Positions 1 to 31,007 of a stretch of 31,007 nt of DNA are shown piece after piece (position 1 is the first letter of the stretch; each line of letters opens with the position of its first letter). The stretch lies in IMG/VR virus record IMGVR_UViG_2917881069_000004; one strand, given 5' to 3'. The stretch comes from a virus. Taxonomy: Duplodnaviria > Heunggongvirae > Uroviricota > Caudoviricetes. Position numbers and translations under genes: made by a program. The notes beneath the pieces were generated by a model. It was not told where the DNA came from, ran no database searches, and saw only the letters and a program-made list of their open reading frames with translations.

Positions 1-140
1 ATGGAGGCTAATTTTTCTATTTCTGGCAACGGGTTAATGACAGTTACTATTTTTCGAGAAGCTGATACTGACCTGAGGGATGCTGTATATGTCTGGACTG
101 TAATTGAATGGGGTTTACACACGATGGAATCTGGACCAAT

Positions 141-162
141 AAAAAAGCCCGCATCAGCGGGC
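141..162 (-). terminator. Terminator-like hairpin in the chromosomal flank
   Basis: Seen in sequence: A6 (141-146), then GCCCGC (147-152), loop atca, GCGGGC (157-162). On the minus strand the stem is followed by TTTTTTATT. About 135 nt beyond the ssrA-derived core in the direction of ssrA transcription. Confidence 0.45.
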
Positions 163-294
163 TTTAATGTCACAGGGAGTCGCGACTCCGTTGCGTATTC
201 CTTTTTTGTCCTCCCCACCGTCTGGTCGGTGTCCTGATGAGACTTCTAACTTCCTGTTTTTGTTGGTGTTGTGATAACACCATCCAATCATGAT

Positions 295-339
295 TGGTGG
301 AGCTGGCGGGAGTTGAACCCGCGTCCGAAATTCCTACAT
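295..339 (-). other. Prophage attachment-site core: 45-nt copy of the 3' end of ssrA (tmRNA), ending in CCA
   Basis: Reverse complement of 295-339 reads ATGTAGGAATTTCGGACGCGGGTTCAACTCCCGCCAGCTCCACCA, matching the 3' terminus of enterobacterial tmRNA as I recall it. Sequence to the right of 339 no longer matches ssrA, so this is a partial copy and not the gene. Confidence 0.75.
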
Positions 340-489
340 ACCATTTTTACCATAACAAAAACATTAAGTTTCATTTAAAATCAGTCTGTTATTGTTGTTT
401 TGTGTTTGTCCGTTTTACGCTTTTTTAATGCTCTGCCGCCAAAATGCCGCCACATTGTAGGTATTAAGTCTACTATTTATCACCTGTTG

Positions 490-1387
490 TTAAGACACGC
501 GGGCATCGTACCCATACAAGTCTTGAAAGCATGAGTAAAACAATTCTTGATTGTTGAGTTCGCCCTTTGTTTCCGGTATTTCACTCTGTAGAAAATTTTT
601 ATTAATTGTCCACTCAATAGCTAAAGTATTAGTGTAGTTTGTTGAACTACTAATTTTAGCATTATTAGGATGAAAAAGTTGCTGTATAAATTCAATATCT
701 GAATCAAGTGAAATAAAATGTATGTTTGCATTATCTTTTAATCTATCATCAAATCTAAGTTGGATAGTGGTTTTGTAATGATTAAAATCAGCAATTGGGT
801 TATAAGATGAAAAATTTTTACTTTTAAATTTTAATATCTTCTCAGCTCGTTGGCTTCCAAAGATATACATCAGAGCTACAATTGTAAACGGTTGGTTTTT
901 AAATTCATTAAACTCGTTTACTATCTCTTTAAACTCATAATATGTATTCTCTCGTTGTTCTACTTTCTTTGTTTCCCCTATTTTTTCTTGTAGCTTATCA
1001 AGGAATTTTGTTTTTTTATCTATTAATCTGTCAGTTTCTTTTTCATATATTATTTTTGATAGTTTATTTACATTGGATGTTAGGAAATCATAATCAGTGT
1101 TAGCTTCTTTAATAAATGATTTTACAATTTCACTATCCTCTATAATTAATTTTCTTATTTTTTTATTAGGTGTTTTTATGATTTCTAATTTGCCGTTACT
1201 GTCAAGTTTTTTTATGGGTTTTTCCTTCTATTATTGATAGTAAAGGTGAGAAAGTATTTCCTTTGATATCTAATGCTTTTAATTTATTAAGCATATCAAT
1301 TCTATTAGGTTCTGGGATATTAGAAGAATTGTTGTGCTTATTCATTAGATCAATTATGTTTCGATCTAAAAGGTAGAGCTCTGTCAT
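490..1387 (-). CDS. AT-rich cargo ORF of unknown function, about 298 aa if joined; split by a 1-nt frame shift at a T7/A7 tract
   Basis: Track ORFs 1202..1387 (61 aa) and 490..870 are parts of one reading frame. By hand translation the frame of 490..870 stays open up to 1227, and removing one A from the A7 run (plus-strand T7 at 1207-1213) fuses the 61-aa ORF to it (..THKK-LDSNGKLEII..). Composition is strongly AT-rich compared with the phage backbone. The N-terminus LYLLDRNIIDL resembles the first strand of PIN-like nuclease folds (weak, by eye). Confidence 0.5.
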
Positions 1388-1399
1388 AATAATTACCTT

Positions 1400-2425
1400 T
1401 TAATTAGTAGAAAAAAGAGTGGCTAAAGGATTTTTTGTCACCGCATCTTCAAGATGCTCTGGTGCGAAATGAGCATAAATCATGGTCATTTTTATATCGG
1501 TATGGCCTAAAATTTCTTTAAGCACAAGTATATTACCGCCATTCATCATAAAGTGGCTGGCGAATGTATGGCGTAGCACGTGGGTGCATTGTCCTTCTGG
1601 CAGTTCGATACCGGCCCGCTTTACTGCCCGCTCAAAGGCTTTTCTGCATGGTGTGAATAATTTCCCTCTATTTTTGGGAAGTTCGTCATACAGATCCTGA
1701 GATATTGGCACGGTACGGTTTTTCTTGCCCTTCGTCTTGGTGTATGTGATGCGGTATTTTGACAACTGGTGTCCCTGCAGATTTTCTGCTTCACTCCAGC
1801 GTGCTCCGGTGGCCAGGCATATTTTTGCAATCATCAGCAGGCTGGGGCTTTGAGAATCTGCGCAGGCATCCAACAGGCGCTTGATTTCGTCCATGGAAAG
1901 AAAGGCCAGCTCACCTTCAGCAATTTTAAATGTAGGAAGTCCTGCCAGTGGGTTTGGTGCTGACCAGTGTCCCAGCTTTTTCAGTGTGCCAAAAACCGAT
2001 GACAGGTTGCGTTGTTCAAGATTTACCGTGCGGGGCTTAACAGGCGACATAAGCGCGCCATCTTCATTTCGCACTTCACCCTTTAGCCGTGCTTCCCGGT
2101 ATTTCGTAAAATCACCGGCGGTCAGTTCTGAAGCGATGGGATCGCCCAGACCATTACAGATAATTTTAAGTTTCGCCATCAGGCGTTTGGGGTCAGCAAG
2201 CGTCTGTCCGTAAAGTGAGTACCATTGTTCAATCACTTCTGACAAATGTCGCCGATCTTCCTTTTCCCCCAGCCACGGTTTTTTGTTCACTTCTTCCATT
2301 GTGAAACGTTCAAACGCAATGGCTTCGCCTTTTGTCGCAAATTGTTTACGTACGCGTTTGCCATCTCGCCCGTTTGGGTAGCATTCACATAACCACTTTC
2401 CGTTCGGCTGTTTTCTGATCGTCAT
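1400..2425 (-). CDS. int: Tyrosine integrase (P2 Int-like)
   Basis: 341 aa. C-terminal catalytic signature visible (ARWSE, VLRHTFASH, HTDIKMTMIYAH). Adjacent to the att core. Start lies 2 nt beyond the cI stop, suggesting a cI-int operon. Confidence 0.9.
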   Translation of the reverse strand: MTIRKQPNGKWLCECYPNGRDGKRVRKQFATKGEAIAFERFTMEEVNKKPWLGEKEDRRHLSEVIEQWYSLYGQTLADPKRLMAKLKIICNGLGDPIASELTAGDFTKYREARLKGEVRNEDGALMSPVKPRTVNLEQRNLSSVFGTLKKLGHWSAPNPLAGLPTFKIAEGELAFLSMDEIKRLLDACADSQSPSLLMIAKICLATGARWSEAENLQGHQLSKYRITYTKTKGKKNRTVPISQDLYDELPKNRGKLFTPCRKAFERAVKRAGIELPEGQCTHVLRHTFASHFMMNGGNILVLKEILGHTDIKMTMIYAHFAPEHLEDAVTKNPLATLFSTN

Positions 2426-2427
2426 TA

Positions 2428-3066
2428 TTAGATGCTCTTAATCACTTTTACCACACGCCCTACAACGGCTACGTCATCAACTGCACATTCAAAGGTTGTT
2501 TCTTCCTGATGAACAACAAGCTTATTTCCGGGAATTCGAGCTACTTTTACGATGCTTTTCACTCCATCAATATCAACAAGCCAAGAGCCATTACTGATCT
2601 GTTTTACAGATACATCAACAATAAAACTTTCTGTTGTCGTTTGTATGAATAGATAGTTTGACGAATCGCCCTCAACCAACCTGCTATCTAATAAAATTTC
2701 GTCATATGATTGAAGTTCACCATTTCTTAATTCTGTGTATTTGATACTGGGAGCTACGATTTTAGAAAGTGGTCTAATTGTGACGTCATTATCATTTTTG
2801 AGAATGTTTGAGTCACAGTTATCTGCATACATATCACCCTGTCCGGTTGCCAACCAAAGAAGCGAGATCCCGGTTTCTAGAGCACATTGAATTACCCACT
2901 CTGCTGGAAAGCTATCTCTTAAGTATCTGTTTGCCATGGTGCTTTTAGATACTTTTAAGTGTTCGCAGAGTTGTTGGCGTGAGCTGAAATTGTAGGCTTT
3001 TATCAGCCTGTTGATGGCATCACGACCCCCACTATCGTTTCCACCCTTGATTAGACTCATAATCAA
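2428..3066 (-). CDS. cI: Immunity repressor, 186-type CI family
   Basis: 212 aa. Position between int and the divergent early operon. N-terminal HTH-like region (CALETGISLLWLATGQG) and C-terminal motifs (WLVDIDG, FECAVDD, GRVVKVI) resemble phage 186 CI as recalled. AAGGGG sits 7 nt upstream of the ATG. Confidence 0.7.
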   Translation of the reverse strand: MIMSLIKGGNDSGGRDAINRLIKAYNFSSRQQLCEHLKVSKSTMANRYLRDSFPAEWVIQCALETGISLLWLATGQGDMYADNCDSNILKNDNDVTIRPLSKIVAPSIKYTELRNGELQSYDEILLDSRLVEGDSSNYLFIQTTTESFIVDVSVKQISNGSWLVDIDGVKSIVKVARIPGNKLVVHQEETTFECAVDDVAVVGRVVKVIKSI

Positions 3067-3071
3067 ACCCC

Positions 3072-3100
3072 TTGACGCATATAAAATGAGATCTTAATAT
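3072..3100 (+). promoter_or_regulatory. Candidate early rightward promoter (pR-like)
   Basis: TTGACG (3072-3077), 17-nt spacer, TAATAT (3095-3100), in the cI/apl divergent intergenic region. Confidence 0.45.
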
Positions 3101-3143
3101 CCATTCATGGTTTGAAAAGCAAAACCAAACCACATAAAACGAG

Positions 3144-3425
3144 ATGATACGATTACAAACTAAGAGATACTGCACTATGAGCAACGACATTTCAATTCGT
3201 GTACCAAAAGTGATGGCGACACCAGCTGAGTTCGCGGAATGGGAAGGCCGCTCTCGCGGTTCGGTATATCAAATGATTCATAATGGAAAACTCGCTAAAT
3301 TCTTGGAAAGAAAAGAAAAACCGAAAGACAGAGTATGTATACGTTACCTTGAGTACAAAAAGGAACAAGTCAGGAAAAACATGGGCCAATCCAATTTCAA
3401 CTTTAATGTCATCGTTGGTGACTAA
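3144..3425 (+). CDS. apl: Apl/Cox-like small excisionase and switch regulator
   Basis: First gene of the rightward operon facing cI; 82-93 aa depending on start (alternative ATG at 3177, MSNDIS..). Size and position match 186 Apl / P2 Cox. Family assignment is by synteny only. Confidence 0.55.
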   Translation: MIRLQTKRYCTMSNDISIRVPKVMATPAEFAEWEGRSRGSVYQMIHNGKLAKFLERKEKPKDRVCIRYLEYKKEQVRKNMGQSNFNFNVIVGD

Positions 3426-3457
3426 GTTCAATTATGAGAACTTTCTAAGGGGGCAGC

Positions 3458-3967
3458 ATGTTTGATTACAAGATTTCCAAACATCCGCATTTTGATGAAG
3501 CCTGTAGAGCTTTTGCACTACGTCACAATATGGCGAAGCTGGCAGAACGTGCAGGAATGAATGTTCAGACACTGCGAAACAAACTCAACCCAGATCAATC
3601 GCATCAGCTCACCGCACCAGAAATCTGGCTGCTTACCGATCTGACTGAAGATTCAACGCTGGTAGATGGCTTTCTGGCACAGATTCACTGCCTGCCATGC
3701 GTACCGATTAATGAAGTGGCAAAAGAGAAACTGCCGCATTACGTCATGAGTGCAACTGCAGAGATCGGGCGTGTTGCTGCAGGTGCGGTATCTGGCGATG
3801 TAAAAACCAGTGCAGGTCGTCGTGATGCTATCAGCAGCATTAACTCTGTAACACGATTGATGGCGCTGGCGGCTGTTTCATTGCAGGCCCGTTTACAGGC
3901 TAATCCTGCGATGGCGAGTGCAGTTGATACCGTGACTGGCCTCGGTGCTTCATTCGGTTTGCTGTGA
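3458..3967 (+). CDS. cII: CII-like lysogeny establishment regulator
   Basis: 169 aa, the same length as 186 CII; follows apl; strong RBS AAGGGGG before the ATG. Confidence 0.6.
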   Translation: MFDYKISKHPHFDEACRAFALRHNMAKLAERAGMNVQTLRNKLNPDQSHQLTAPEIWLLTDLTEDSTLVDGFLAQIHCLPCVPINEVAKEKLPHYVMSATAEIGRVAAGAVSGDVKTSAGRRDAISSINSVTRLMALAAVSLQARLQANPAMASAVDTVTGLGASFGLL

Positions 3968-3974
3968 GGTGCTT

Positions 3975-4366
3975 ATGCTGACGAAAGAACCATCATTTGC
4001 ATCGCTGCTGGTAAAACAAAGCCCGGCAATGCACTACGGTCACGGCTGGATCATGGGTGAGGATGGTAAACGCTGGCATCCGTGCCGTTCACAAGATGAA
4101 TTGCTGTCTGAATTGACCACGGGGAAACGGAGAAAGTCAAAATGTATGCAGCGGAAAGTGAAGTGGTTTATCAGTTTCGTTACAGAGGGGAGAGTTATTC
4201 AGTACCTGAAGATGATTTGCTCTGTTGTTATCCGTCGTTGTCGGGCGATGGCAGTTACTTTTTCACGCTAAAGGATGGGACGTTTTTACGGGGAGAGCAG
4301 GTTAAAGAGATGATACGAAAAAATATATCTCCTCTTGAGCGTTACCGTAAGAACAAAGAGCGATAG
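3975..4366 (+). CDS. Early-region hypothetical protein, about 130 aa; apparent 1-nt frame shift near 4125-4140
   Basis: Track ORFs 3945..4271 and 4142..4366 overlap in different frames. Adding one A in the agaaag run joins them (..GKRRKVKMYAAESEVVY..). Confidence 0.45.
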
Positions 4367-4388
4367 TTGCGTTTTGGGGATATGAATT

Positions 4389-4730
4389 ATGGCAATTAAT
4401 GGCGCTGCGGCGACTGTTCCATTAAGCCCAGGTGAACGCCTGAATGGACTTAATCATATTGCGGAATTAAGGGCGAAAGTATTTGGCCTGAATATTGAGT
4501 CAGAGCTTGAGCGGTTTATTAAAGATATACGTGATCCACGGGATGTTAATTATGAACGAAATAAACGGGCACTGGCTGCTATATTCTTTATAGCAAAAAT
4601 TCCAGCTGAACGTCATAGCATCAGCATTAATGAGCTGACCACTGACGAAAAGCGGGAGTTGATTAAAGTAATGAATCATCTTCGTGCAGTGGTGAGCTTA
4701 TTTCCCAGACGGCTAGCCATGCCGAATTAA
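4389..4730 (+). CDS. Early-region hypothetical protein
   Basis: 113-aa ORF co-directional with the early operon; no recognisable motif. Confidence 0.5.
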   Translation: MAINGAAATVPLSPGERLNGLNHIAELRAKVFGLNIESELERFIKDIRDPRDVNYERNKRALAAIFFIAKIPAERHSISINELTTDEKRELIKVMNHLRAVVSLFPRRLAMPN

Positions 4731-4791
4731 CCAATTAATGAAATTCATGGCGTAAACCCGCCGGGCATTCCTTTATCTAAATTCAGGAGAA

Positions 4792-5031
4792 TTGATTATG
4801 CGTAATATTGAAACCCTCTCGACTAAAACCGGACCGGATGACGCAGGACTTAATATTTTACTGACAGAGGCTCGTCTGGAAGAACGTCGGGCAAGAGCTG
4901 AAGCAATGGCAGCTCGCCTTGATAGCCTTGCGTGCCATATCACATCCCGCCAGCTAAACCACGTTGAAGCGGCTGAACTGCTGCGTGTGGCAGCTGAAGC
5001 AATCCAGAACGAAGCGCAGGAGATCCACTAA
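4792..5031 (+). CDS. Early-region hypothetical protein
   Basis: 79-aa ORF (alternative ATG at 4798 preceded by CAGGAGA); stop overlaps the next start. Confidence 0.5.
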   Translation: MIMRNIETLSTKTGPDDAGLNILLTEARLEERRARAEAMAARLDSLACHITSRQLNHVEAAELLRVAAEAIQNEAQEIH

Positions 5032-5258
5032 TGGCTGATGCAATGGATCTCGTACAGCAGCGCGTTGAAGAAGAACGCCAGCGTCATATCCGTGCCGCCC
5101 GTGCCAAAACGCCGGGCGTGTCCCGCGTGCTTTGCATTGAGTGTGAAGCGCCAATTCCGCCAGCACGCCGCCGTGCCATTCCGGATGTGCAGCTTTGCAT
5201 TACCTGTCAGGAAATCGCAGAGCTGAAAGGCAAACATTACAACGGAGGTGCTGTATGA
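5031..5258 (+). CDS. TraR/DksA-family C4 zinc-finger protein
   Basis: 75 aa with CIEC...x17...CITC, the CxxC-x17-CxxC spacing typical of TraR/DksA-type phage proteins. Its stop overlaps the Dam start (ATGA). Confidence 0.7.
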   Translation: MADAMDLVQQRVEEERQRHIRAARAKTPGVSRVLCIECEAPIPPARRRAIPDVQLCITCQEIAELKGKHYNGGAV

Positions 5259-6112
5259 GCACCATCCTGAAATGGGCGGGAAATAAAACCGCCATTATGT
5301 CCGAACTGAAAAAGCATCTTCCTGCTGGCCCGCGACTGGTTGAACCTTTCGCGGGTTCCTGTGCAGTGATGATGGAGACGGAGTACCCCAGCTATCTTGT
5401 TGCGGATATTAATCCTGATTTAATCAACCTCTATAAAAAGGTTGCTGCTGATTGTGAATCGTTTATATCTCGCGCCAGAGTTTTATTTGAGATCGCAAAC
5501 AGGGAGGTGGCTTATTACAACATAAGGCAGGAGTTTAATTACTCAACTGAAATTACTGATTTCATGAAAGCGGTATATTTCCTGTATCTCAATCGTCACG
5601 GTTACCGTGGTTTATGTCGCTATAACAAGAGCGGGCATTTCAACATTCCCTACGGTAATTATAAAAATCCGTATTTCCCTGAAAAAGAAATTCGCGCATT
5701 TGCAGAAAAAGCCCAGCGAGCAACGTTTATCTGCGCCAGCTTTGATGAAACGCTGGCGATGTTGAAGGCGGGGGATGTGGTGTATTGCGATCCGCCGTAT
5801 GACGGTACGTTTTCCGGCTATCACACTGATGGCTTCACTGAGGATGACCAGTATCACCTGGCATCCGTTCTTGAACATCGATCATCTGAAGGTCATCCGG
5901 TCATTGTTTCTAACAGTGACACATCCCTGATTCGTTCGCTGTATCGCAATTTCACTCACCACTACATCAAGGCAAAACGCAGCATCGGCGTGTCGGCTGG
6001 CGAGAGTAAATCTGCAACAGAAATCATTGCTGTTTCCGGGGCGCGCTGCTGGGTGGGATTTGATCCTTCGCGTGGCGTGGATAGTTCTGCTGTGTACGAG
6101 GTGCGTGTATGA
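5255..6112 (+). CDS. dam: DNA N6-adenine methyltransferase (Dam-like), orphan
   Basis: About 285 aa starting [11 protein letters not shown] with GGAGG 7 nt upstream. Motif I-like PFAGSCAV and catalytic DPPY ([10 protein letters not shown]) are present. No adjacent restriction endonuclease candidate. Confidence 0.85.
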
Positions 6113-8522
6113 GTCATGACGATATGAGCAACTCTAGCGGCTTTAACGAGGCCGCAGCAGCATTTTCATGGAACGGCCCGAAAAAGGCCATTAACCCTTA
6201 TCTGGACCCGGCGGAAGTTGCGCCGGTTTCTGCGCTTTCAAACCTGATCACTCTGTACGCTGCCGATAACGAGCAGGAACAACTGCGCCGCGAGGCACTG
6301 AGTGATCAGGTCTGGGAGCGTTATTTCTTTAATGAATCCCGTGATCCTGTCCAACGCGAAATGGAGCAGGATAAGCTCATTAGCCGGGCAAAGCTGGCGC
6401 ATGAGCAGCAGCGTTTTAATCCAGATATGGTCATTCTGGCGGACGTCAATGCCCAGCCTTCCCATATCAGCAAGCCGCTGATGCAACGTATTGAATACTT
6501 CAGCAGCCTGGGCAGGCCAAAGGCTTATTCCCGCTATTTGCGTGAGACGATTAAGCCATGTCTGGAACGACTGGAGCATGTACGCGACAGTCAGCTATCC
6601 ACTTCTTTTCGCTTTATGGCAAGCCATGAAGGGCTGGACGGCCTGCTGATCCTGCCTGAAATGAGTCAGGATCAGGTGAAACGCTTGTCTACCCTTGTCG
6701 CTGCGCATATGAGCATGTGCCTTGATGCAGCTTGTGGCGATTTGTATGTCACCGATGACGTTAAGCCAGAAGAAATCCGCAATACATGGGAAAAGGTGGC
6801 AGCGGAAACCCTGCGTCTGGATGTCATCCCGCCTGCGTTTGAGCAACTCCGCCGGAAAAGAAACCGCCGTAAACCCGTGCCCTATGAACTCATTCCGGGT
6901 TCGCTGGCGCGTATGTTGTGCGCTGACTGGTGGTACCGGAAATTATGGAAGATGCGTTGCGAATGGCGGGAAGAGCAGTTGCGTGCTGTCTGCCTGGTCA
7001 GCAAAAAAGCATCTCCCTATGTCAGCTATGAAGCCGTGATGCATAAACGTGAGCAGCGCCGTAAGTCGCTGGAGTTTTTTCGTTCTCATGAACTGGTGAA
7101 CGAAGACGGCGACACGCTGGACATGGAGGATGTGGTAAACGCCAGCAGCAGCAACTCTGCGCATCGCCGCAATGAGATGATGGCCTGTGTTAAAGGCCTG
7201 GAGCTTATCGCGGAAATGCGCGGTGACTGCGCCGTTTTCTACACCATCACCTGTCCGTCACGTTTCCATTCCACGCTAAATAACGGCAGGCCCAACCCGA
7301 CCTGGACAAATGCGACGGTAAGACAAAGCAGTGATTATCTGGTCGGCATGTTTGCTGCATTTCGTAAGGCGATGCACAAAGCCGGATTGCGCTGGTATGG
7401 CGTGCGGGTGGCTGAGCCGCATCATGACGGTACAGTTCACTGGCACCTGTTGTGTTTTATGCGCAAAAAAGATCGCCGCGCCATTACTGCTTTGTTGCGT
7501 AAGTTTGCCATTCGTGAAGACCGCGAGGAGCTGGGGAATAACACGGGACCACGCTTTAAGTCTGAGTTGATTAACCCGCGCAAAGGAACGCCGACAAGCT
7601 ACATCGCGAAATATATCAGCAAGAACATTGACGGGCGTGGTCTGGCTGGCGAGATCAGCAAGGAAACGGGTAAATCTCTGCGTGATAACGCTGAATACGT
7701 TAATGCCTGGGCGTCTCTGCATCGTGTTCAGCAATTCCGCTTCTTTGGTATTCCGGGGCGTCAGGCTTACCGTGAACTGCGATTGCTGGCTGGTCAGGCG
7801 GCAAGGCAACAGGGCGACAAAAAGCAGGTGCGCCGGTACTGGATAACCCGCGCCTTGATGCCATCCTGGCTGCTGCTGATGCTGGTTGTTTTGCCACTTA
7901 CATCATGAAGCAGGGTGGTGTACTGGTTCCCCGCAAATATCACCTCATCAGAACTGCTTATGAAATTAACGAAGAGCCGACCGCCTATGGCGATCACGGC
8001 ATTCGTATTTATGGCATCTGGTCACCCATTGCAGAGGGCAAGATCTGCACTCATGCAGTGAAGTGGAAAATGGTTCGTAAAGCCGTTGACGTTCAGGAGG
8101 CGGTAGCCGACCAGGGCGCTTGCGCCCCTTGGACTCGTGGCAATAACTGTCCCCTTGCTGAAAATTTGAACCAACATGAGAAAGATAAATCAGCAGACGG
8201 GGATACCAGAACGGACATTTCCTGCATGGATGACAAGGAATTGCACGATTACCTGCACAGTATGGGCAAAAAAGAGCACCGGGAACTGGCAGCAAGATTA
8301 CGCCTGGTTAAACCGAAACGGCGTAAAGACCACAAACAGCGAATTACAGACCATCAGCGTCAGCAGCTCGTCTATGAACTGAAGTCCAGAGGATTTGATG
8401 GCAGCGAGAAAGAAGTCGATTTACTGCTTCGTGGCGGCAGTATTCCGTCAGGAGCAGGCCTGCGTATCTTCTATCGGAACCAGCGTTTGCAGGAAGATGA
8501 TAAGTGGCGGGATCTGTATTAA
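6109..8522 (+). CDS. A: Rolling-circle replication initiator (P2 gpA-like); apparent 1-nt frame shift near 7810-7820
   Basis: HUH-type motif [10 protein letters not shown]. Track ORFs 6109..7908 and 7905..8522 are continuous in sense (..QGDKK / [32 protein letters not shown]..) if the A5 run is A6. Confidence 0.8.
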
Positions 8523-8615
8523 TTACGCGGGTTAACAATTCGTGCTCTTAATAATACCAGGCATATCAGGCTGATGAACGTAAAAAAAACGTTTTACATC
8601 AGTAAGATTATTATA

Positions 8616-8635
8616 TACTGTAAATATAAACAGTG
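8616..8635 (+). promoter_or_regulatory. LexA (SOS) box overlapping a candidate promoter
   Basis: TACTGTAAATATAAACAGTG fits CTGT-N8-ACAG and matches 17 of 20 positions of the consensus TACTGTATATATATACAGTA. A -35-like TTTACA lies at 8593-8598. The box is 42 nt upstream of the 8677 ATG. Confidence 0.7.
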
Positions 8636-8676
8636 GTTATATATACAGTGTTGCGTATGGTGTTATAGGAGGAAAG

Positions 8677-8865
8677 ATGCAGGACTATTTTTGGGAGTCT
8701 TTGAAGCTCCAGCGCATTGATTTTTTTCTTAAGCTTGTAGCGGCTAGTGAGTGTAGCGATGAAGAGAAGGGGCTGGCTCTGCAGTGGGTTTCTGAATTGA
8801 CTGATGAGTTGATGGCGAAAATTCGAAGCCATGAATACAGTAGGTCGATGGATGTAATCAGTTGA
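8677..8865 (+). CDS. Small protein (62 aa) under a LexA box; candidate SOS-induced antirepressor or moron
   Basis: Strong RBS (TAGGAGGAAAG then ATG). Occupies the position of 186 tum (between A and cos) in a phage with a 186-type CI. No sequence resemblance to DinI recognised. Confidence 0.55.
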   Translation: MQDYFWESLKLQRIDFFLKLVAASECSDEEKGLALQWVSELTDELMAKIRSHEYSRSMDVIS

Positions 8866-8898
8866 GCTTGTTTCGTTAGGACTTGATAAGGGAACCGA

Positions 8899-8919
8899 AA
8901 AGGGGCATTAAGCCCCTTT
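8899..8919. terminator. Bidirectional hairpin between convergent genes
   Basis: AAAGGGGC-attaa-GCCCCTTT, an 8-bp stem, between the stop of 8677..8865 (+) and the stop of 8933..9232 (-). Flanking U-tracts are short. Confidence 0.45.
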
Positions 8920-8932
8920 CTCATAAGTTGAT

Positions 8933-9232
8933 TTAGTTGTTCCCCAAAGAGCCGGCCATGGCTGCATATTTAATTTCTTCGCTGGGTATTTCAGGATGTA
9001 GTTGAATTTGCCTGATGACATAGCCAGGAACTTCGTCACTCCACAGTTTCGCCGCGTCCTTACAGACCTTATACGCGAAGTCTCTATTCTCAAAGGCATA
9101 GGATTTTCCGTATGCATATTGCTGACAGGCATGAACATAAGCTCCGAAGTCGCCGTCTTTATCTGGCAAAGCACATCCAGCCAAGGCTATGATGATTGCT
9201 ACTAACGTAAAGGAGAAAGTTATACGTTTCAT
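8933..9232 (-). CDS. Small lipoprotein (99 aa), unknown function
   Basis: Signal peptide with lipobox LAGC (MKRITFSFTLVAIIIALAGC..). Located in the A-Q variable island. Confidence 0.65.
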   Translation of the reverse strand: MKRITFSFTLVAIIIALAGCALPDKDGDFGAYVHACQQYAYGKSYAFENRDFAYKVCKDAAKLWSDEVPGYVIRQIQLHPEIPSEEIKYAAMAGSLGNN

Positions 9233-9340
9233 GGTCTCTTTCTAAGCGTTTAGCATTATTTAACTAAGGGGTATCTGCCGTGATTTGGTAGTCCCTGATA
9301 TATATTCTCAGGGACTATGCTGAAGTAGCTTTAATTTCGA

Positions 9341-10147
9341 TTATTTAGAAAGGTACTTATCTCTAAGTTGATTCAGTCTGTCAGCATCGCGTTCTGAAAA
9401 CTCGGCGTCACCATAGATCGATTTCCCATCTGCGTCTTCAAGGCCAATGACTGTGACGGTAAATATAGCATCAGCCGGAACTTTAAGTTTTCCCCAATCA
9501 GAGTATCTATTAGGGGCTAATTTCCAGTTGGCTTTCTCACCTGGTTCCAGACCTCCAGAAATTTTATAGTTGAAGACGTCAGAGAACCAAGGGACGCTTC
9601 TTCCTGGACTGGCAATAACTCCTTTGAAGAATACTCTGGCAACCGCTTTGTCTGTTCCGTTTTCAACGCTAATATCCAGAATTGGCTGATCATTGCCGTA
9701 ATCCTCTTTCTGGAAATAAAAACGGGAACGTTCGACCTTGAAGGCTTTCATTTTTTCCGCAGCCTGTGTTGCAGAGGTTTGTTTGGCTTCCAGTTCTTTT
9801 ATTTCTTGCAGAGCCTGTTCTTTCTCTCTCTTCTCACGCTCAAGGCGAATAGTTTGTGCGTAATTTATAACCTCATCACCAGTTTTACCTTCCAACGCTG
9901 ACTTAATTTTTGTTTCGTAGACGTCCCCAGAAGACGTTCCAGCCTGCATTAGCTCTCTCATGTTGATTTGGCTAAAGGCAACGACTTTAACTGCATCATC
10001 AAACTGAGCTTTTTTATCTGCAGGTAAGGACTCTCTTACTTTTTGAATGGACTCTTTCATCGACTGATCGCTTGATGCATCGATCTTCGGTTTGTCACAA
10101 GCAGTAAGCAGCAGAGCAAAAGCAATTACGCCAGTTAATTTCTTCAT
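9341..10147 (-). CDS. Lipoprotein (about 267 aa), unknown function
   Basis: Track ORF 9341..10219. The likely true start is the internal ATG at 10147 (MKKLTGVIAFALLLTAC, lipobox LLTAC), because the upstream extension is the translation of a hairpin plus T-run. Central Lys/Glu-rich predicted coiled region. Confidence 0.65.
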   Translation of the reverse strand: MKKLTGVIAFALLLTACDKPKIDASSDQSMKESIQKVRESLPADKKAQFDDAVKVVAFSQINMRELMQAGTSSGDVYETKIKSALEGKTGDEVINYAQTIRLEREKREKEQALQEIKELEAKQTSATQAAEKMKAFKVERSRFYFQKEDYGNDQPILDISVENGTDKAVARVFFKGVIASPGRSVPWFSDVFNYKISGGLEPGEKANWKLAPNRYSDWGKLKVPADAIFTVTVIGLEDADGKSIYGDAEFSERDADRLNQLRDKYLSK

Positions 10148-10161
10148 ATCCCTATCCCAAT

Positions 10162-10197
10162 CGTAAAAAAACAAGGCTAATCCTAACAGGATTAGCT
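10162..10197 (-). terminator. Terminator-like hairpin plus U-tract in the leader of the lipoprotein gene
   Basis: On the minus strand CTAATCCT-gtt-AGGATTAG (perfect 8-bp stem) is followed by CCTTGTTTTTTT, 15 nt upstream of the ATG at 10147. A candidate -35/-10 pair (TTTATA-17-TATGAG) lies just upstream. Confidence 0.5.
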
Positions 10198-10662
10198 GGC
10201 ATGACAAACTCATAGCCATATAGGTGTGCTGTATAAATTAGCGGGATGAGAAAGCCTGCGCAGCCCCTCATGTTGAAACTTGATTTTAGCTCAAAAGAGC
10301 TGACACTAAATAACTGCGCGGAATAATGCTCCACTTTCGGTTAGCCCTTGCTGGGTAAGGCGTGGGGCCGTTTTCTTCGCCTGATCCTGCTGTATCTGGC
10401 CTACAGTATGTTGCCCTTACGCGACATGCCACATGTCAGTAAACGGCAGGTGTAGCAGTATTAGACGCAGCTATTTAGTGTGTATTAAGCTGGCTCATAT
10501 TTATGACTGGTTTCAAGGTTTGACCGATTTTCATGTCATGCATGTCTATGCTGCATGAGTTCGCATGATCGTTTGAGGATCGGTTTGGCTAAGACATGCC
10601 AGAACTGGCGGGCTTTTGCTCATGTCATGCAGGTGCATGAAAACCACTACATAAAGCGGGCA

Positions 10663-10681
10663 GGCGTGGCGGGGATACGAG
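10663..10681. other. cos site (cohesive-end region)
   Basis: GGCGTGGCGGGGATACGAG resembles the 19-nt cohesive ends of P2 (GGCGAGGCGGGGAAAGCAC) and 186 as recalled. Correct position between the variable island and portal gene Q. Confidence 0.6.
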
Positions 10682-10770
10682 CGCGCGCAACGGGGTAAAA
10701 TGGCCAAAATCCGGCACAGCCTCTGGCCCGCTGGCGGCCTCATTTAGTGGAGGGGGGGCGATGTCAGGGC

Positions 10771-10806
10771 AAAAAGAAACGCCCCGCAGAATGCTGCTGA
10801 GGCGTT
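10771..10806 (-). terminator. Possible terminator of the leftward P-Q late operon
   Basis: AACGCC / GGCGTT arms with an internal GCAG/CTGC mini-stem, followed on the minus strand by a T-run; about 40 nt downstream of the Q stop. Loop is long, so weak. Confidence 0.3.
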
Positions 10807-10841
10807 GTGAGAGTTGGTCGGTTATTGATGTTATGAGTATG

Positions 10842-11885
10842 TCAGCTTCGTTTGCCCTTAAGTCCTAAGTCATAGGCTTCAAAACGGATAACCTCTTCAT
10901 CCAGCCAGTCATTCAGCTCCTGCAGTCGCTTTTGCAGGGGCATCAGTTCATTGCGGACGAAGACACGGCTCGCTTTTTCCACATCCCCAAAGCCGCCAGT
11001 GTTGTTGGGAATGATGCCCATCATTTGCGGCGGTACGCGGTGAGCCGCCATCATGTCATCGCGGCTGACGTTCTTGATGTTCAGAAATTCATCCTTCGCC
11101 GCGACTTCCGACAACGGGATAATCTGAATGCCATCTTTTTTGCCGTTAGGCGAGTACATAAACAGGTTGCGGAAGTTGCCCGGTCCTTTAGCACTTTTCA
11201 TTGCCTTGCGGATGTTGTTCACATCCTCCTGGTTCTGTGCGGCGTCGGTCATGTACATGATGAAGCCTGCGTGGCTGCCGTTAATGTAATACTTGCGGCG
11301 GAACAGCGTGGCGGATTCGTTGAGCAGAGCTGACGGAATGGCAGAAAGGTAACCCGGCAGACCATAAATCTCCTGGTTGATATCCGGCTCCATCAGGTGG
11401 AAGACGTTACCTTTTGTGAACTGATACGGCTGTGTCGTCAGGCTGTATTGCACAAACCAGTATGTTTCAAGGTCAAGCCCGCGTCGGGTGTATTTTGCCA
11501 GTGCAGGCTCCAGCGAAATAACTTCACCAAAGCGGTTCGTGCGTTTCTCCAGGTAGGCGTTACCAAAAACCAGATAGTCCTGCACAAAACGGGTAAATGC
11601 CTGCTGGCTGAGAAGGCGATGTGGAATATAGGTACTGCTGATAATGTCACGCTTAACACTGATCGGGGAGCTGTGGTGCACGGCGGCGCGGAAGGTGCGC
11701 GCCAGTCCGTCAAAGCTGACGGGTGGCTCATACCAGCGATCCATCTGTACGCATTCCACATAGTCCAGCAGTTCGCGGCGGTCCAGTACAGGAATGGGAT
11801 CACCAAAGCTGAAAGCCTCCGCAACGGGTTTTTTAGTTTCTTCTGCAGTTACGGTTTCGCCTGGCGCGATATGTTCTTTCATCAA
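10842..11885 (-). CDS. Q: Portal protein (P2 gpQ-like)
   Basis: 347 aa (P2 Q is about 344 aa). Start overlaps the terminase stop. Position next to cos. Confidence 0.85.
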   Translation of the reverse strand: MMKEHIAPGETVTAEETKKPVAEAFSFGDPIPVLDRRELLDYVECVQMDRWYEPPVSFDGLARTFRAAVHHSSPISVKRDIISSTYIPHRLLSQQAFTRFVQDYLVFGNAYLEKRTNRFGEVISLEPALAKYTRRGLDLETYWFVQYSLTTQPYQFTKGNVFHLMEPDINQEIYGLPGYLSAIPSALLNESATLFRRKYYINGSHAGFIMYMTDAAQNQEDVNNIRKAMKSAKGPGNFRNLFMYSPNGKKDGIQIIPLSEVAAKDEFLNIKNVSRDDMMAAHRVPPQMMGIIPNNTGGFGDVEKASRVFVRNELMPLQKRLQELNDWLDEEVIRFEAYDLGLKGKRS

Positions 11886-13646
11886 AAAATCTCCACAATA
11901 TTGCTGGTATTGGCGGACTCGCCCTGCAGCGGTTCGTTAAACAGTGCGTGCATGGTTGCCCATGCCAGATCGGCGTGGCTGGCTTCTTCGCTGCGGCTGG
12001 CTTCGTAGGTCGGGCGGTTGCCACTGGCGGTGGTGGCGCGACGGATTGCCATGAATGACTGCGCAATGTCGGTATGTCCGGCGTCAAACTCCAGACGGCG
12101 GTGGCTGATAATGTCGTAGGCCTTGAGTACCAGGGCGTTTTTAACGTTGGGGTTGTAGACAAACTCCCGGACGGCAGGAAAGAACGCTTTCACGTTCTCG
12201 TAAACCCCGTGACCGACGCCGGTTGAGTCGATACCGATATAGGTCACGTTGTACTGTTCGGTCAGTTTTTTGATGGCGTCAGCTGGGCGCGGAAGTCCAT
12301 CCCGCGCCACTGGTGACGCTCAAGAATGCGGAACTTACCGCCTGGCACGGCTGGCGGTGCCACCACCACGCATCCGGCGCTGTCGCCGTTCTGCGTACCT
12401 TTTGCCGGGTCATAACCGATCCACACTTCGCGCCAGCCAAACGGGCGCAGGGCCAGTGCATGAAAGTCGGTCCAGACTTCCCAGCTGTCCACCATGCACG
12501 CCTGCAATTCGCTGAGCGGGAACACAGATGCGAGATCGTCAACGAACTCGCACATCAGCAGGTTCTGGTATTCGTCCGGGCTGTACTCCATGCGCAACTG
12601 GTCGAGGTCGAACAGGTTACAGCCGCCGCGTACCGCATCTTCCACGGTGATTATCTGGCGGTATTGCCCGTCTGCGCACAGCAGGCCGGGGGCCAGATTG
12701 CTGTGGGACAGGTCGATGTCCACCTTATCGGCTTTGTTGCGCCCACGGTTGAACAGCGCACCGGACCAGAACGGATAAGCACTGTGTGTCAGGCTGGATG
12801 GCGTGGAAAAATAGGTCTGTCGCCATTTCTTGTGAATAGCCATACCGGAAGCCACTTTGCGCAGCTCCTGGAATTTCGGTATCCAGAAATATTCATCCAG
12901 ATACAGGTTGCCGTGGTAACTCTGGGCCGTGCGGGCATTGGTGCCGAGGAAATACAGTGTGGCCCCGTTGGGAAGCACCATCGGATCGCCTTTCAGCTCC
13001 ACCTCCACTTCTTTGGCGAAGTCGATGATGTACTGCTTAAAGACGTGGGCCTGTGCCTTACTGGCAGAAAGGAAAATCTGGTTACGTCCGGTAAGCAGGG
13101 CGTCAATCAGGGCTTCACGGGCAAAGTAAAAGGTCGCACCGATCTGGCGTGACTTCAGCAGGTTGCGGATGCGGTTGGTTTTTCCGGCTTCCCACCAGTG
13201 GCGCTGGTAGTTGAACATGGAGGAATGGAAGATTTCTTCCAGCTTCTCAATCTGTTCATCGGTGAAAACGTTCTTTTCCGGCTGACGACGCGGGCCTTTG
13301 TTGCGGTTGGCGACGTTAGGGTTTAAGTCGCTTCGTTGCCGCCATTGTTAAACTTGCCGATCCGCGCGTGGCGCTCCGACTGGCGCGCCAGCAGGTCAAT
13401 CTCTTTGAAATCTTTCCCTTCTTTGTGCTCCTTCATAATGAGCTGGCAGTAGCGTGCGGCGGTGGTGAGCTGCATCTGATCCAGCGGCCCATAATCACCC
13501 CACTTGTCGCGTTTTTTCCAGCTGTGAACGGTTGCAACTTTCTCGCCCAGCATTTCAGCAATGCGGGCTACGCGGTATCCCTGAAAGTACAGCAGCATGG
13601 CCTGCCGACGGGGATCGAGATCTGCGGGTGTCAGTGTGGTGTTCAT
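11882..13646 (-). CDS. P: Terminase large (ATPase) subunit (P2 gpP-like); two apparent 1-nt frame shifts
   Basis: Three track ORFs (13323..13646, 12262..13218, 11882..12310) tile one gene of about 588 codons. Junctions lie near 13327-13347 and near 12285-12300 (ccc run). The sense continues across both junctions. Confidence 0.8.
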
Positions 13647-24169: not shown

Positions 24170-25341
24170 ATGGCTCAGGATTACCACCACGGGGTGCGCG
24201 TTGTTGAAGTCAACGAAGGCACCCGATCCATTACCACGGTGAGCACCGCCATCGTGGGTATGGTCTGCACGGGCGATGATGCCGATGCAAAAATGTTTCC
24301 TCTTAATAAACCCGTGCTGATCACTGATGTACTGACCGCCAGCGGTAAAGCGGGTGAGTCCGGCACGCTGGCCCGTTCGCTGGATGCCATCGCTGACCAG
24401 GCAAAACCCGTGACCGTTGTTGTGCGTGTGCCGCAGGGTGAAACGGAAGAAGAAACCACGACCAATATCATCGGCGCAGTGACTGCTGAAGGTAAAAAAA
24501 CAGGCATGAAAGCCCTGTTATCTGCCCAGACACAGCTCGGCGTTAAACCGCGCATTCTCGGCGTGCCAGGTCACGATAACAAAGCCGTTGCTACTGAGTT
24601 GCTGAGTGTGGCGCAAAGCTGCGTGGGTTTGCCTACCTGTCAGCGTATGGCTGCAAGACGGTACAGGAGGCGATCACTTACCGTGAAAACTTCAGCCAGC
24701 GCGAAGGAATGCTGATCTGGCCTGACTTTACTGGCTGGGACACGGTGCTGAATGCCGAAGCAATGGCATATGCCACCGCTCGTGCGCTTGGTCTGCGTGC
24801 CAAAATTGATGAGCAGACCGGGTGGCACAAAAGCCTGTCCAACGTGGGCGTGAACGGTGTCACCGGAATTTCTGCAGATGTGTTCTGGGATCTGCAGGAC
24901 CCGGCAACCGATGCAGGTCTGCTGAACCAGAACGACGTCACCACGCTTGTGCGTAAAGACGGGTTCCGCTTCTGGGGTTCCCGCTGTCTGAGCGATGATC
25001 CGCTCTTTGCCTTCGAAAACTACACCCGCACGGCGCAGGTGCTGACGGACACAATGGCAGAAGCGCATATGTGGGCGGTGGACAAACCGCTGAACCCGTC
25101 GCTGGCCCGCGACATTATCGAAGGTATCCGCGCCAAAATGCGCAGCCTGGTCAGTCAGGGCTATCTCATTGGTGGTGATTGCTGGCTGGACGAGTCGGTG
25201 AATGACAAAGACACGCTGAAAGCCGGAAAACTCACCATCGATTACGACTACACGCCAGTACCGCCACTTGAAAACCTGATGCTGCGTCAGCGCATCACCG
25301 ATCAGTACCTGGTGAATTTCTCCAGCCAGGTAAGCGCGTAA
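24170..25341 (+). CDS. FI: Tail sheath protein (P2 gpFI-like); apparent 1-nt frame shift near 24616-24620
   Basis: Track ORFs 24170..24715 and 24709..25341 sum to about 390 aa (P2 FI is about 396 aa). The frame is restored if caaag is caaaag (..[41 protein letters not shown]..). Confidence 0.8.
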
Positions 25342-25350
25342 GGGGGCAAC

Positions 25351-25866
25351 ATGGCTTTACCACGTAAATTAAAACACCTGAACCTGTTTAATGACGGGAA
25401 CAACTGGCAGGGGATCGTTGAGTCGCTGACGCTGCCGAAATTCACCCGCAAATATGAGAAGTATCGCGGCGGCGGAATGCCGGGTGCGGTGGATGTGGAT
25501 CTGGGGCTGGATGACGGCGCACTGGATACTGAATTTTCCATTGGCGGTACTGAGCTACTGCTGTTTAAGCAGATGGGCAAAGCTACGGTGGATGGCATCC
25601 AGCTGCGCTTTACCGGCTCTATCCAGCGTGACGATACCGGGGAAGTGCAGGCCGTGGAGCTTGTAGTGCGTGGACGTCACAAAGAAGTGGATTCCGGCGA
25701 GTGGAAGACGGGCGAAAGCAACACCACCAAAGTGACCAGTACCAACAGCTACGCGAAGCTGACCATCAATGGTGAGGTGCTTTATGAAGTGGACCTTATC
25801 AACATGGTGGAAATTGTGGACGGTGTGGACCTGATGGAAGCGCACCGCAACGCCCTCGGCCTCTGA
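25351..25866 (+). CDS. FII: Tail tube protein (P2 gpFII-like)
   Basis: 171 aa directly after the sheath gene. Confidence 0.85.
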   Translation: MALPRKLKHLNLFNDGNNWQGIVESLTLPKFTRKYEKYRGGGMPGAVDVDLGLDDGALDTEFSIGGTELLLFKQMGKATVDGIQLRFTGSIQRDDTGEVQAVELVVRGRHKEVDSGEWKTGESNTTKVTSTNSYAKLTINGEVLYEVDLINMVEIVDGVDLMEAHRNALGL

Positions 25867-25920
25867 TGTATCTGAACGGCGCGGATTGCCGCGCCAGAAC
25901 CCAATTTACAGGACAACAAA

Positions 25921-26223
25921 ATGAGCGATAAGCAGACTGAAAAGACCATTCAACTGGATACTCCCATCATGCGCGGTAAAACAGAAATTACCGAAATTGT
26001 GTTGCGTAAACCGCAGTCCGGTGCGCTGCGCGGCACACGCCTGCAGGCCATTATGGATATGGATGTGAACGCGATGATGACCGTGATCCCCCGCATCTCC
26101 AGTCCGGCACTGACTGCACAGGAAATTGCAGAGCTGGATCCGGCAGATCTCACTGCCATGTCGGTTGAGGTTGTCACTTTTTTGTTGAAGAAGTCGGTGC
26201 TTGCCGGTTTACCGACAGCCTGA
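25921..26223 (+). CDS. E: Tail assembly chaperone E; an E+E' fusion to 26357 is expected by -1 frame shift
   Basis: 100-aa ORF just upstream of the tape measure gene. The -1 frame is open from the slippery site to a stop at 26355-26357, overlapping the T start. Confidence 0.75.
   Translation: MSDKQTEKTIQLDTPIMRGKTEITEIVLRKPQSGALRGTRLQAIMDMDVNAMMTVIPRISSPALTAQEIAELDPADLTAMSVEVVTFLLKKSVLAGLPTA
26178..26184 (+). other. Programmed -1 ribosomal frameshift site (slippery heptamer T_TTT_TTG) for E/E+E'
   Basis: TTTTTTG in X_XXY_YYZ register relative to the E frame, at the conserved position near the 3' end of E. The equivalent chaperone frameshift is established for P2 E/E' and lambda G/GT. Confidence 0.7.
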
Positions 26224-26349
26224 CGGTTGACGATCTGGTGGCTGATATCGCCACCATCTTTCACTGGCCGCCATCCGTTACTGACGTTATGCCGCTGACC
26301 GAAGTGCTGGAATGGCGGTATAAAGCGATTCAGAGAAGCGGGGCCAGCC

Positions 26350-29300: not shown

Positions 29301-29428
29301 AGACGCAGCCAGGACAAAGTGCGCAGGATATTGCGCGGGAGGTGGCCCGCCAGCTTGATGAACGTGAACGCAGGCTGAAGGCAAAAGCCAGGAGTAACTA
29401 CAGCGATCAGGGGGGATACGACGCATGA
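26350..29428 (+). CDS. T: Tail tape measure protein (P2 gpT-like); apparent 1-nt frame shift near 28790-28825
   Basis: Track ORFs 26350..28896 and 28823..29428 overlap in different frames. The second carries a typical tape-measure C-terminal region (GGYIPRGQFGIVGENGPEIVNGPANVTS). Coiled Ala/Leu/Gln-rich body. Confidence 0.8.
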
Positions 29429-29909
29429 TGATGGTGCTGGGATTGTATGTGTTTATGCTGCGCACCGTACCGTATCAGGAACTGCAGTATCAACGCAGCT
29501 GGCGACATGCGGCTAACAGTCGGGTAAACCGTCGTCCGTCCACGCAGTTTCTGGGACCGGACAACGACATGCTGACGCTTTCTGGTGTTCTTATGCCGGA
29601 GATAACAGGCGGCAGGCTGTCGTTGCTGGCACTGGAGCAGATGGCAGAACAGGGGAAAGCATGGCCCCTGATTGAAGGCAGCGGCACGATTTATGGCATG
29701 TATGTGATTGAGGGACTGAATCAGACTAAAACGGAGTTTTCCGCGACGGTATGCCGCGCCGGATTGAGTTCACCCTGTCGCTCAAACGGGTGGATGAATC
29801 TCTGTCCGATATGTTCGGTGATCTCAGTGCGCAACTGAATAATCTGCAGGAAACGGCAACATCTGCTTTAAGCGATATCAGTAAAACGGTGGGAGGGCTG
29901 CTGTCGTGA
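29425..29909 (+). CDS. U: Tail protein (P2 gpU-like); apparent 1-nt frame shift near 29745-29755
   Basis: Track ORF 29425..29838 (137 aa). Adding one T to a T4 run gives ..TEFFRDGMPRRIEFTLSLKRVDESLSDMFGDLSAQLNNLQETATSALSDISKTVGGLLS, ending at the stop at 29907-29909; total about 161 aa (P2 U is 159 aa). Confidence 0.75.
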
Positions 29910-31007
29910 ATTTCAGCTCTGAACTGCTTAACAAAGGCAACAAAACTCCCGCATTCAGCATCAGTATTGAGGGCAGGGAGTATCACTACTGTCCTGGATA
30001 AGCGCCTGATGAGTCTGACGCTGACGGACAACCGGGGCTTTGAAGCAGACCAGCTTGATCTGGAGCTGGACGACGCCGACGGAAAAATCGTGCTGCCGCG
30101 CCGTGGTGCGGTCATTACGCTGGCGCTGGGCTGGAAGGGGCAGCCGCTTTTCCCGAAAGGGGCATTCACGGTGGACGAGATTGAACACACTGGCGCACCG
30201 GACCGCCTGACTATCCGGGCGCGAAGTGCTGATTTTAGGGAAACGCTGAATACCCGCCGCGAAAAATCGTGGCACAAGACCACTGTCGGGGAAGTGGTGA
30301 AGGAAATAGCCGCACGTCACAAGCTGAAGATGGCACTGGGTAAAGACCTGTCGGATAAGCCCGTGGAGCATATAGACCAGACTAATGAGAGTGACGGTAG
30401 TTTTCTGATGCGGCTGGCGCGCCAGTACGGTGCTATTGCGTCGGTGAAAAATGGCAATCTGTTATTCATCCGGCAGGGACAGGGTAAAAGTGCCAGCGGT
30501 AAACCACTGTCGGTGATCACTATCACACGTAAGGACGGCGACAGTCACCGCTTTACCCTGGCAGATCGCGGAGCTTACACGGGCGTAATTGCCAGCTGGT
30601 TGCATACCCGCGAACCCACGAAGAAAGAAAGCACTACAGTGAAGCGTAAGCGCAGGACTAAGGCCCAGAAGAAAGAGCCGGAAGCGAAGCAGGGCGATTA
30701 CCTGGTGGGGACGGATGAAAACGTGCTGGTACTTAATCGCACTTATGCCAACCGGAGCAACGCCGAACGAGCGGCGAAAATGCAGTGGGAACGCCTGCAA
30801 CGCGGTGTTGCGTCATTCTCACTACAACTGGCAGAAGGGCGGGCGGATCTCTACACGGAAATGCCAGTGAAAGTCAGTGGCTTTAAACAGCCGATAGATG
30901 ATGCGGAATGGACCATTACGACTCTGACGCATACCGTCAGCCCGGATAACGGTTTTACGACCGGTATTGAACTTGAAGTGAAAATTGATGATCTTGAAAT
31001 GGAATAA
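29906..31007 (+). CDS. D: Tail/late protein D (P2 gpD-like); apparent 1-nt frame shift near 29975-29985
   Basis: Short N-terminal frame from the GTG at 29906 (..NKTPAFSISIEGR..) joins the 346-aa track ORF 29967..31007 (..ITTVLDKRLMSLTLTDNRGFEADQLDLELDD..) if a ggg run is gg. The stop is the last codon of the window. Confidence 0.75.

Follow-up and report, generated by a model that had tools for sequence, protein, structure and literature searches.

The left end of this 31,007-nt stretch of phage DNA, which we refer to in full as the window, carries a short piece of a tmRNA gene between a hairpin and an integrase gene, and it raises the question of which end of which element is seen here, where the intact ssrA gene lies and to which transcription unit the hairpin belongs. 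Tyrosine integrases that act at tRNA or tmRNA genes use an attP that carries the 3' part of the RNA gene; integration rebuilds the gene, and direct repeats come to flank the element. Our survey leaves little doubt that positions 1-490 are the int-proximal att junction of a Fels-2/SopEPhi-type P2-like (Peduoviridae) prophage at the 3' end of ssrA, a junction type that is ordinary and already described for Fels-2/SopEPhi-type prophages at this gene. The features on which this reading is built are as follows.

1-137, no strand assigned: host intergenic DNA from the ssrA terminator towards glaH (csiD), recognized by colinearity with Nissle and LF82 and holding most of the open reading frame (ORF) at 1-237
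138-165, minus strand: predicted intrinsic terminator of the native ssrA unit, with a 9-bp stem (144-152/157-165), a loop at 153-156 and a U-tract from 143 to ~138
166-293, minus strand: native 3' trailer of the pre-tmRNA, with conserved hairpins at 176-189, 216-231 and 265-281
294-339, minus strand: att core, in which the 45 nt at 295-339 are the displaced ssrA 3' end, comprising the T-arm, the 3' acceptor strand and CCA
340-490, no strand assigned: int-side phage arm of attP, homologous to Cartapus attP, SopEPhi, Fels-2 and RE2010
434-452, plus strand: tandem TGCCGCCA-AAA-TGCCGCCA, candidate arm-type Int sites, unique in the window
491-1387, minus strand: AT-rich cargo gene (298 aa in relatives), here split into ORFs 1202-1387 and 490-870
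1400-2425, minus strand: tyrosine integrase of the Fels-2/SopEPhi/186 type (Pfam Int_N 3e-28, Phage_integrase 1e-24)
2428-3060, minus strand, upstream of int: 186-type CI repressor (Pfam Phage_CI_repr and Phage_CI_C; a 210-aa gene call in contig L007)

Read on the minus strand, positions 295-339 are ATGTAGGAATTTCGGACGCGGGTTCAACTCCCGCCAGCTCCACCA and reproduce the final 45 nt of enterobacterial tmRNA exactly. The T-arm, 3' acceptor strand and CCA of the Rfam tmRNA model (RF00023) align there with a posterior of ~1.0 and an E value of 7.7e-11 in a 700-nt search, and the score of 31.4 bits falls under the gathering cut-off of 47 bits because the match is partial, with only the 3' end present and the rest of the tmRNA molecule absent. 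The core occurs once in the window, and neither ARAGORN nor an Rfam scan at the gathering threshold found a complete tmRNA or tRNA in its 31 kb. Positions 1-339 align with the annotated ssrA 3' end and downstream flank of E. coli Nissle 1917 at 89.7% identity, and within this alignment the 45 nt are identical at 45/45 positions. A preliminary description, made from the letters alone, had placed a 45-nt minus-strand copy of the ssrA 3' end here and had named an error in its tmRNA 3' sequence as a possible weak point; both the copy and that sequence proved correct.

The limits of the junction were set by a four-way alignment of the window, the empty Nissle site, the occupied LF82 site and the Cartapus attP, followed by an ungapped comparison that included the far ends of LF82 and TUM9754. 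Positions 294-339, that is 46 bp comprising the 45 nt of ssrA and one further base, are identical in the window, the Nissle attB, the Cartapus attP and both prophage junctions. Homology of the window to host DNA runs up to base 339, homology to the phage attP holds from base 294 on, and homology to the phage arm (Cartapus attP, SopEPhi, Fels-2 and RE2010) begins exactly at the core edge. The left prophage boundary is thereby set at base 339/340, and the right one is predicted ~0.95 kb past the window; the chief value of the result lies in correct annotation, the 45-nt tmRNA-like piece being a displaced fragment and not a gene. A search within the core for an inverted repeat that would place the crossover gave none worth claiming, the T-arm being the sole clear symmetric element, and exact-pattern scans of species-representative (GTDB) genomes for flank plus core and for ogr arm plus core returned no representative with this junction.

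To the right of the core the sequence is phage, as had been proposed, running through Int and a 186-type CI into P2-like genes that end at gene D. Specifically, Int is 94% identical to that of Fels-2 and 93% to that of SopEPhi (over 337 aa), and 94% to that of Cartapus; right of CI, the ORF map and Pfam matches give P2-like genes for replication, the head, lysis and the tail, as far as gene D. The gene order, taken from the window together with identical or near-identical loci, is likewise P2-like, cI-int and D-ogr occupying opposite ends, and 80-84% of positions 1-25000 aligns at ~94% identity to P2-like phage records. The core together with the int-side arm recurs in the records of Fels-2, SopEPhi, RE2010, SEN8, Cartapus and several Klebsiella prophages, and the GenBank record of Fels-2 annotates an attP of 24+23 = 47 bp at the same place. 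Between the replication genes and the portal gene, at 9341-10219 on the minus strand, lies a gene for a 292-aa DUF6694 protein (gene table of contig L007), an interval that holds different genes in three related prophages (L006, L008 and L009).

Int and the core are 1,060 nt apart, and the 0.9-kb cargo gene lies between them. This gene is broken by a 1-nt homopolymer insertion at codon 58; compared with the intact gene of the related prophage L006 it is 100% identical save for the one extra base (tblastn and alignment). Searches of PADLOC and PHROGs with the cargo protein gave no hit, and in Pfam none passed the curated cut-off. The slot itself is variable across relatives, being occupied by a 401-aa putative RES-domain protein in LF82/Cartapus, by orfY in SopEPhi and by genes of 669-1239 bp in other E. 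coli, and it is empty in Fels-2 and TUM9754. The "hypothetical protein" that underlies some matches to the flank region is the phage cargo gene and not ORF 1-237.

Compared with the intact TUM9754 homologues, one frame change each is also present in the sheath (24170-25341), tape measure (26350-29428), gpU (29425-29906) and gpD (29906-31007) genes. The sheath, tape measure and gpU shifts are shared with an independent contig (L005), and the gpD shift, an extra base at ~29980, is found in the window only. These frameshifts reflect either prophage decay or indel-type sequencing errors. Because several phage genes are frameshifted, the element may no longer excise or form particles, and the identity of the junction is unaffected by this.

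The left flank is native ssrA-downstream DNA. Its colinearity with the prophage-free site of Nissle, where the order is smpB, ssrA, flank, glaH, lhgO, reaches as far as glaH, and it is likewise colinear with LF82; the comparison with a prophage-free relative that the preliminary description had suggested thus comes out as it expected. An NCBI contig (L007, GCA_004745185.1) is 100% identical to positions 1-12425 of the window and continues leftward into glaH, lhgO, gabD and gabT. The best match to its host genes among 5,426 complete E. coli genomes is ~95% identical, and the host is accordingly placed in an Escherichia lineage outside typical E. coli. The window starts at the ATG of ORF 1-237 and ends, with its last base, on the gene D stop codon; it seems to have been cut at gene-call boundaries, its ends not being natural contig ends.

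Two host contexts exist beyond the ssrA terminator, namely glaH directly (the window, Nissle and LF82) versus a ypjA-pinH-ypjB block (K-12 and TUM9754), and the homology between the two flank types breaks exactly at the terminator hairpin, at window position 142 (L008, L009, L012 and L028). The trailer on the ssrA side of this break is conserved in all ssrA-downstream flanks examined, folds with a z-score of -2.55 and shows, in the consensus fold, a compensatory U-A to C-G change in its hairpin at 176-189.

A consensus scan places the terminator on the minus strand, from 165 to 144, as AAAGCCCGC-TGAT-GCGGGCTTT and then TTTATTGG; six of the nine stem pairs are G-C, the U-run that follows reads TTTTTTATT on the minus strand, and the same hairpin is present in both the MFE and the centroid folds of the trailer. 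Terminator-like sites number 2 in 1.5 kb against 0.9 +/- 1.0 expected, a count that is not significant by itself. The hairpin is identical in E. coli glaH-type flanks, and the allele of the ypjA context (K-12, TUM9754, L008 and L009) carries a compensatory G-C to A-U change in the stem, a modest covariation support that consists, here as in the trailer, of two alleles with one event per hairpin. The hairpin starts 129 nt past the CCA end and its U-tract ends ~155 nt past it, close to the distance of ~135 nt beyond the core that had been given for a minus-strand terminator, and it is the first terminator-like site 3' of ssrA in the native flank, kept across both flank types, in line with the proposal that it occupies the native ssrA position. 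We assign the hairpin at 144-165 to ssrA as its native intrinsic terminator, termination itself being predicted from sequence.

The preliminary description had placed a second core copy and the intact ssrA gene beyond the far end of the prophage, on the side of D and ogr. Contig L005 (run SRR6148326), which is 99.985% identical to positions 24514-31007 with one 1-nt indel, continues beyond D through ogr (6563-6781), a 91-aa minus-strand ORF and the phage arm to TTGGTGGAGCTGGCGGGAGTTGAACCCGCG. These are the first 30 bases of the core, in the same direct orientation as in the window, and the contig stops within them; this near-identical contig thus shows a second core copy 0.9 kb past the window end, and a short-read contig break inside the repeat is what a second copy predicts. 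In two complete genomes, LF82 (prophage Cartapus) and TUM9754, the order is smpB-ssrA-hyp-ogr-D...CI-int-(cargo)-core copy-flank, with a core copy at either prophage end. The far-end arm is 97.5-99.5% identical in these two genomes and is found at a coverage of at least 80% in 171 E. coli genomes, with ssrA annotated under 25/25 among the matches listed. By strong inference from what is read in these E. coli relatives, the intact ssrA gene of the source genome would lie beyond the ogr end, where it had been expected. Exact look-ups of the products of gpU, tape measure, the D ORF and the sheath fragment returned the 7.4-kb contig L005 alone or nothing, and that of the tube protein led to unrelated P2-like prophages located elsewhere in the chromosome.

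The ORF between ogr and the core varies in size, lying at 7015-7290 on the minus strand of L005 (91 aa) and at 8110-8592 in L003, and encoding 160 aa in LF82. It is labelled BRCT domain-containing in some RefSeq annotations and matches PHROG 2561 ("DNA ligase"). The 160-aa ORF of LF82 has been described as a "putative exonuclease" with expression 15-fold above background in the lysogen (PMC9928086).

Two other readings of this region bear on the junction and on the hairpin. The 45-nt piece might be left over from an earlier element or from a tandem array, or mark a secondary site without an intact ssrA at the far end. Several types of element use ssrA, a 14-nt relic (psaA) sits at the CP4-57 end in K-12, and displaced copies are damaged in some relatives, all of which could be cited for such a reading. 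We nevertheless regard it as highly improbable, given that the phage attP homology starts exactly at 340 where the empty-site homology ends (339/340), that the core is complete and undamaged, that a matching second copy adjoins ogr in the near-identical contig and that intact ssrA is there in every homologous E. coli prophage examined. Somewhat less remote, though still unlikely, is the proposal that the hairpin at 144-165 belongs to a neighbouring unit, as the convergent end of a gene such as ypjA or as part of a glaH/csiD control region. In the window glaH follows it on the same strand after ~530 nt, and in K-12-type genomes the convergent ypjA gene reaches its stop codon ~15 nt from the same hairpin; because of this proximity, the hairpin probably serves both directions in ypjA-type genomes. 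Against ownership by a neighbour, it is the ssrA strand that carries the U-run TTTTTTATT, the plus strand reading just TTTAAT, the distance from hairpin to ssrA end is constant in both flank types, the hairpin marks precisely where the conserved block linked to ssrA ends and is also the first terminator-like site past ssrA in the native flank, and no plus-strand gene in the window ends at it. The assignment of the hairpin to ssrA is the reading we keep.

The same stretch of flank is crossed by the plus-strand ORF at 1-237, which had been noted as running through the hairpin and as probably not being a gene. Its 78 codons from an ATG are uninterrupted, and the window is apparently cut at that ATG, as if a gene caller had accepted the ORF; these two points are what could be said for a real small-protein gene. 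In the homologous E. coli DNA (~89% identical), however, the frame is closed by TAA at codon 12 and further disrupted by three other stops and by two indels that shift it. ORF 1-237 falls in no Pfam or PHROG family, its product matches no gene on record, nothing is annotated over it by RefSeq in the 6 E. coli genomes inspected, and it runs antisense through the pre-tmRNA trailer and terminator. A genuine gene here is scarcely credible, and ORF 1-237 very probably should not be called.

With the junction read as the int-proximal end of a prophage at ssrA, the course of integration can be outlined. The phage attP carries a 46-47-bp copy of the ssrA 3' end, and site-specific recombination by Int between attP and ssrA (attB), with a crossover presumably somewhere within the 46 bp, would place the prophage between two direct core copies. 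At the ogr end the ssrA body would be joined to the core and a phage-borne terminator, and as a result the tmRNA would stay intact; the near end, which is the one seen here, keeps the 45 nt displaced from ssrA on the original 3' trailer and native terminator. Since the displaced copy is intact, excision should restore a functional ssrA, that is, it would rebuild the wild-type gene.

This outline also accounts for the position of the integrase. On one strand of the Cartapus attP, cI is followed by int, the cargo gene, the ssrA-like core, the terminator and finally the ogr end; because the ssrA-like segment is downstream of int on the same strand, int adjoins the displaced copy and is ~32 kb from the intact gene. 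The same int-distal layout is found in Cartapus/LF82 and TUM9754, it is matched at the int-side junction in several further E. coli genomes, and the int gene of Fels-2 (STM2739), 142 nt from the att end of its record, fits it as well. The int-distal layout is the norm for the P2-like group that integrates at ssrA and no peculiarity of this element. The earlier placement of the integrase next to the distal att copy was right in that the gene is distal to intact ssrA, but not in its immediacy, int and core being separated by the 1,060 nt that hold the cargo gene.

Candidate binding sites for Int can be named in both arms. The tandem TGCCGCCA-AAA-TGCCGCCA pattern occurs once in the window against 0.01 expected. 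The same octamer, TG(C/T)CGCCA, recurs at fixed spacing in both arms of attP, with three copies on the ogr side and two on the int side, and has persisted where the arms have otherwise diverged; by analogy with sites in P2-family attP, we infer that these repeats are candidate arm-type sites.

The ogr-side arm carries its own strong predicted terminator, which reads AAGGGGTTACG-TGAA-GGCGTAGCCCCTT and then TTTCTTT on the ssrA strand and starts 9 nt past the CCA in L005; between the small ORF and the core of the source genome, this phage terminator is expected as AAGGGGTTACGTGAAGGCGTAGCCCCTTTTTC. The terminator scan located it as follows.

L005 7405 to 7378 and L012 38062-38089, minus strand: phage-borne predicted terminator with a 12-bp stem

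In TUM9754 the phage terminator stands directly 3' of intact ssrA. As the phage carries its own terminator, integration would swap terminators, ssrA gaining the phage one and a short trailer. The scan found no terminator-like site between the cargo gene and the core, and for this reason the native terminator is the first downstream of the leftward cI-int-cargo unit, whose transcript it would now end. Whether this exchange has functional consequences, for tmRNA maturation or abundance, for the prophage transcript or as an excision switch, is a matter on which we are doubtful, although such effects are conceivable. If they exist, the lysogen would make a pre-tmRNA with a trailer of ~45 nt as against the native ~155 nt with three hairpins, and tmRNA maturation or abundance could change; the native trailer, terminator and tRNA-like 3' fragment would form the 3' end of the cI-int-cargo transcript, whose stability could shift; and a decayed displaced copy would make excision inactivate tmRNA, leaving the prophage locked in or creating an excision-dependent switch.

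Displaced core copies are damaged at the acceptor/CCA end in some relatives, with deletions of 1-6 nt. Locus L009 (~12100-12135) has a 1-nt deletion identical to the psaA (delta-T357) allele of K-12, the deletions in E. coli H22 and SCU-115 span 5 and 6 nt (L013 and L014, ~1780-1800), and L028 23473-23486 is listed among the damaged copies. By analogy with CP4-57, whose excision is reported to delete T357 of ssrA and inactivate tmRNA (PMC10107115), excision in relatives with a damaged copy could rebuild a defective ssrA. The mildly useful points of the present locus are thus the terminator swap and an undamaged displaced copy, from which excision would restore the tmRNA gene, unlike that of CP4-57 in K-12.

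Compared with known systems, the locus is one further case of a well-known phage group using ssrA. Its junction is in principle the same as in the general scheme of integration at tRNA and tmRNA genes (Campbell model). Tyrosine integrases that use such genes in accordance with this model are reportedly the subject of work by Williams from 2002 and 2003. The closest described relatives are Fels-2 and SopEPhi (Salmonella, Felsduovirus), which, according to a passage in PMC3448106 that cites Pelludat et al. 2003, integrate into ssrA. They share with the window the ssrA core (a 47-bp attP versus the 46 bp shared here), an Int at 93-94% identity, a homologous int-side arm (83-85%) and the placement of cI-int beside att. 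SopEPhi, as here, has a cargo gene (orfY) between core and int, though a different one, whereas Fels-2 is without cargo at this position and the window has a frameshifted one; the host in the present case is the Escherichia lineage ~95% identical to E. coli rather than Salmonella.

Cartapus (Elveevirus), the LF82 prophage, for which spontaneous production of virion DNA has been reported (PMC9928086), occupies the same site in the same layout, smpB-ssrA-hyp-ogr-D...CI-int-cargo-core copy-flank-glaH, with an identical core, an Int at 94% identity and the same phage terminator past the core. It differs in its int-side cargo, a 401-aa putative RES-domain protein versus the 298-aa protein of the window type, and in the small ORF at its ogr end, 160 aa versus 91 aa in L005. 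By contrast, CP4-57 of E. coli K-12, with its P4-type IntA, likewise uses the 3' end of ssrA, and a displaced fragment is left on the same native trailer and terminator, but its intA lies directly beside intact ssrA and its distal fragment psaA measures 14 nt, whereas in the window int is on the side of the displaced copy and the core is 46 bp. An ssrA island of the P4/CP4-57 type would have int at the intact gene and a core of ~14 nt, and the window, where int adjoins the displaced copy and the core is 46 bp, is not of that type.
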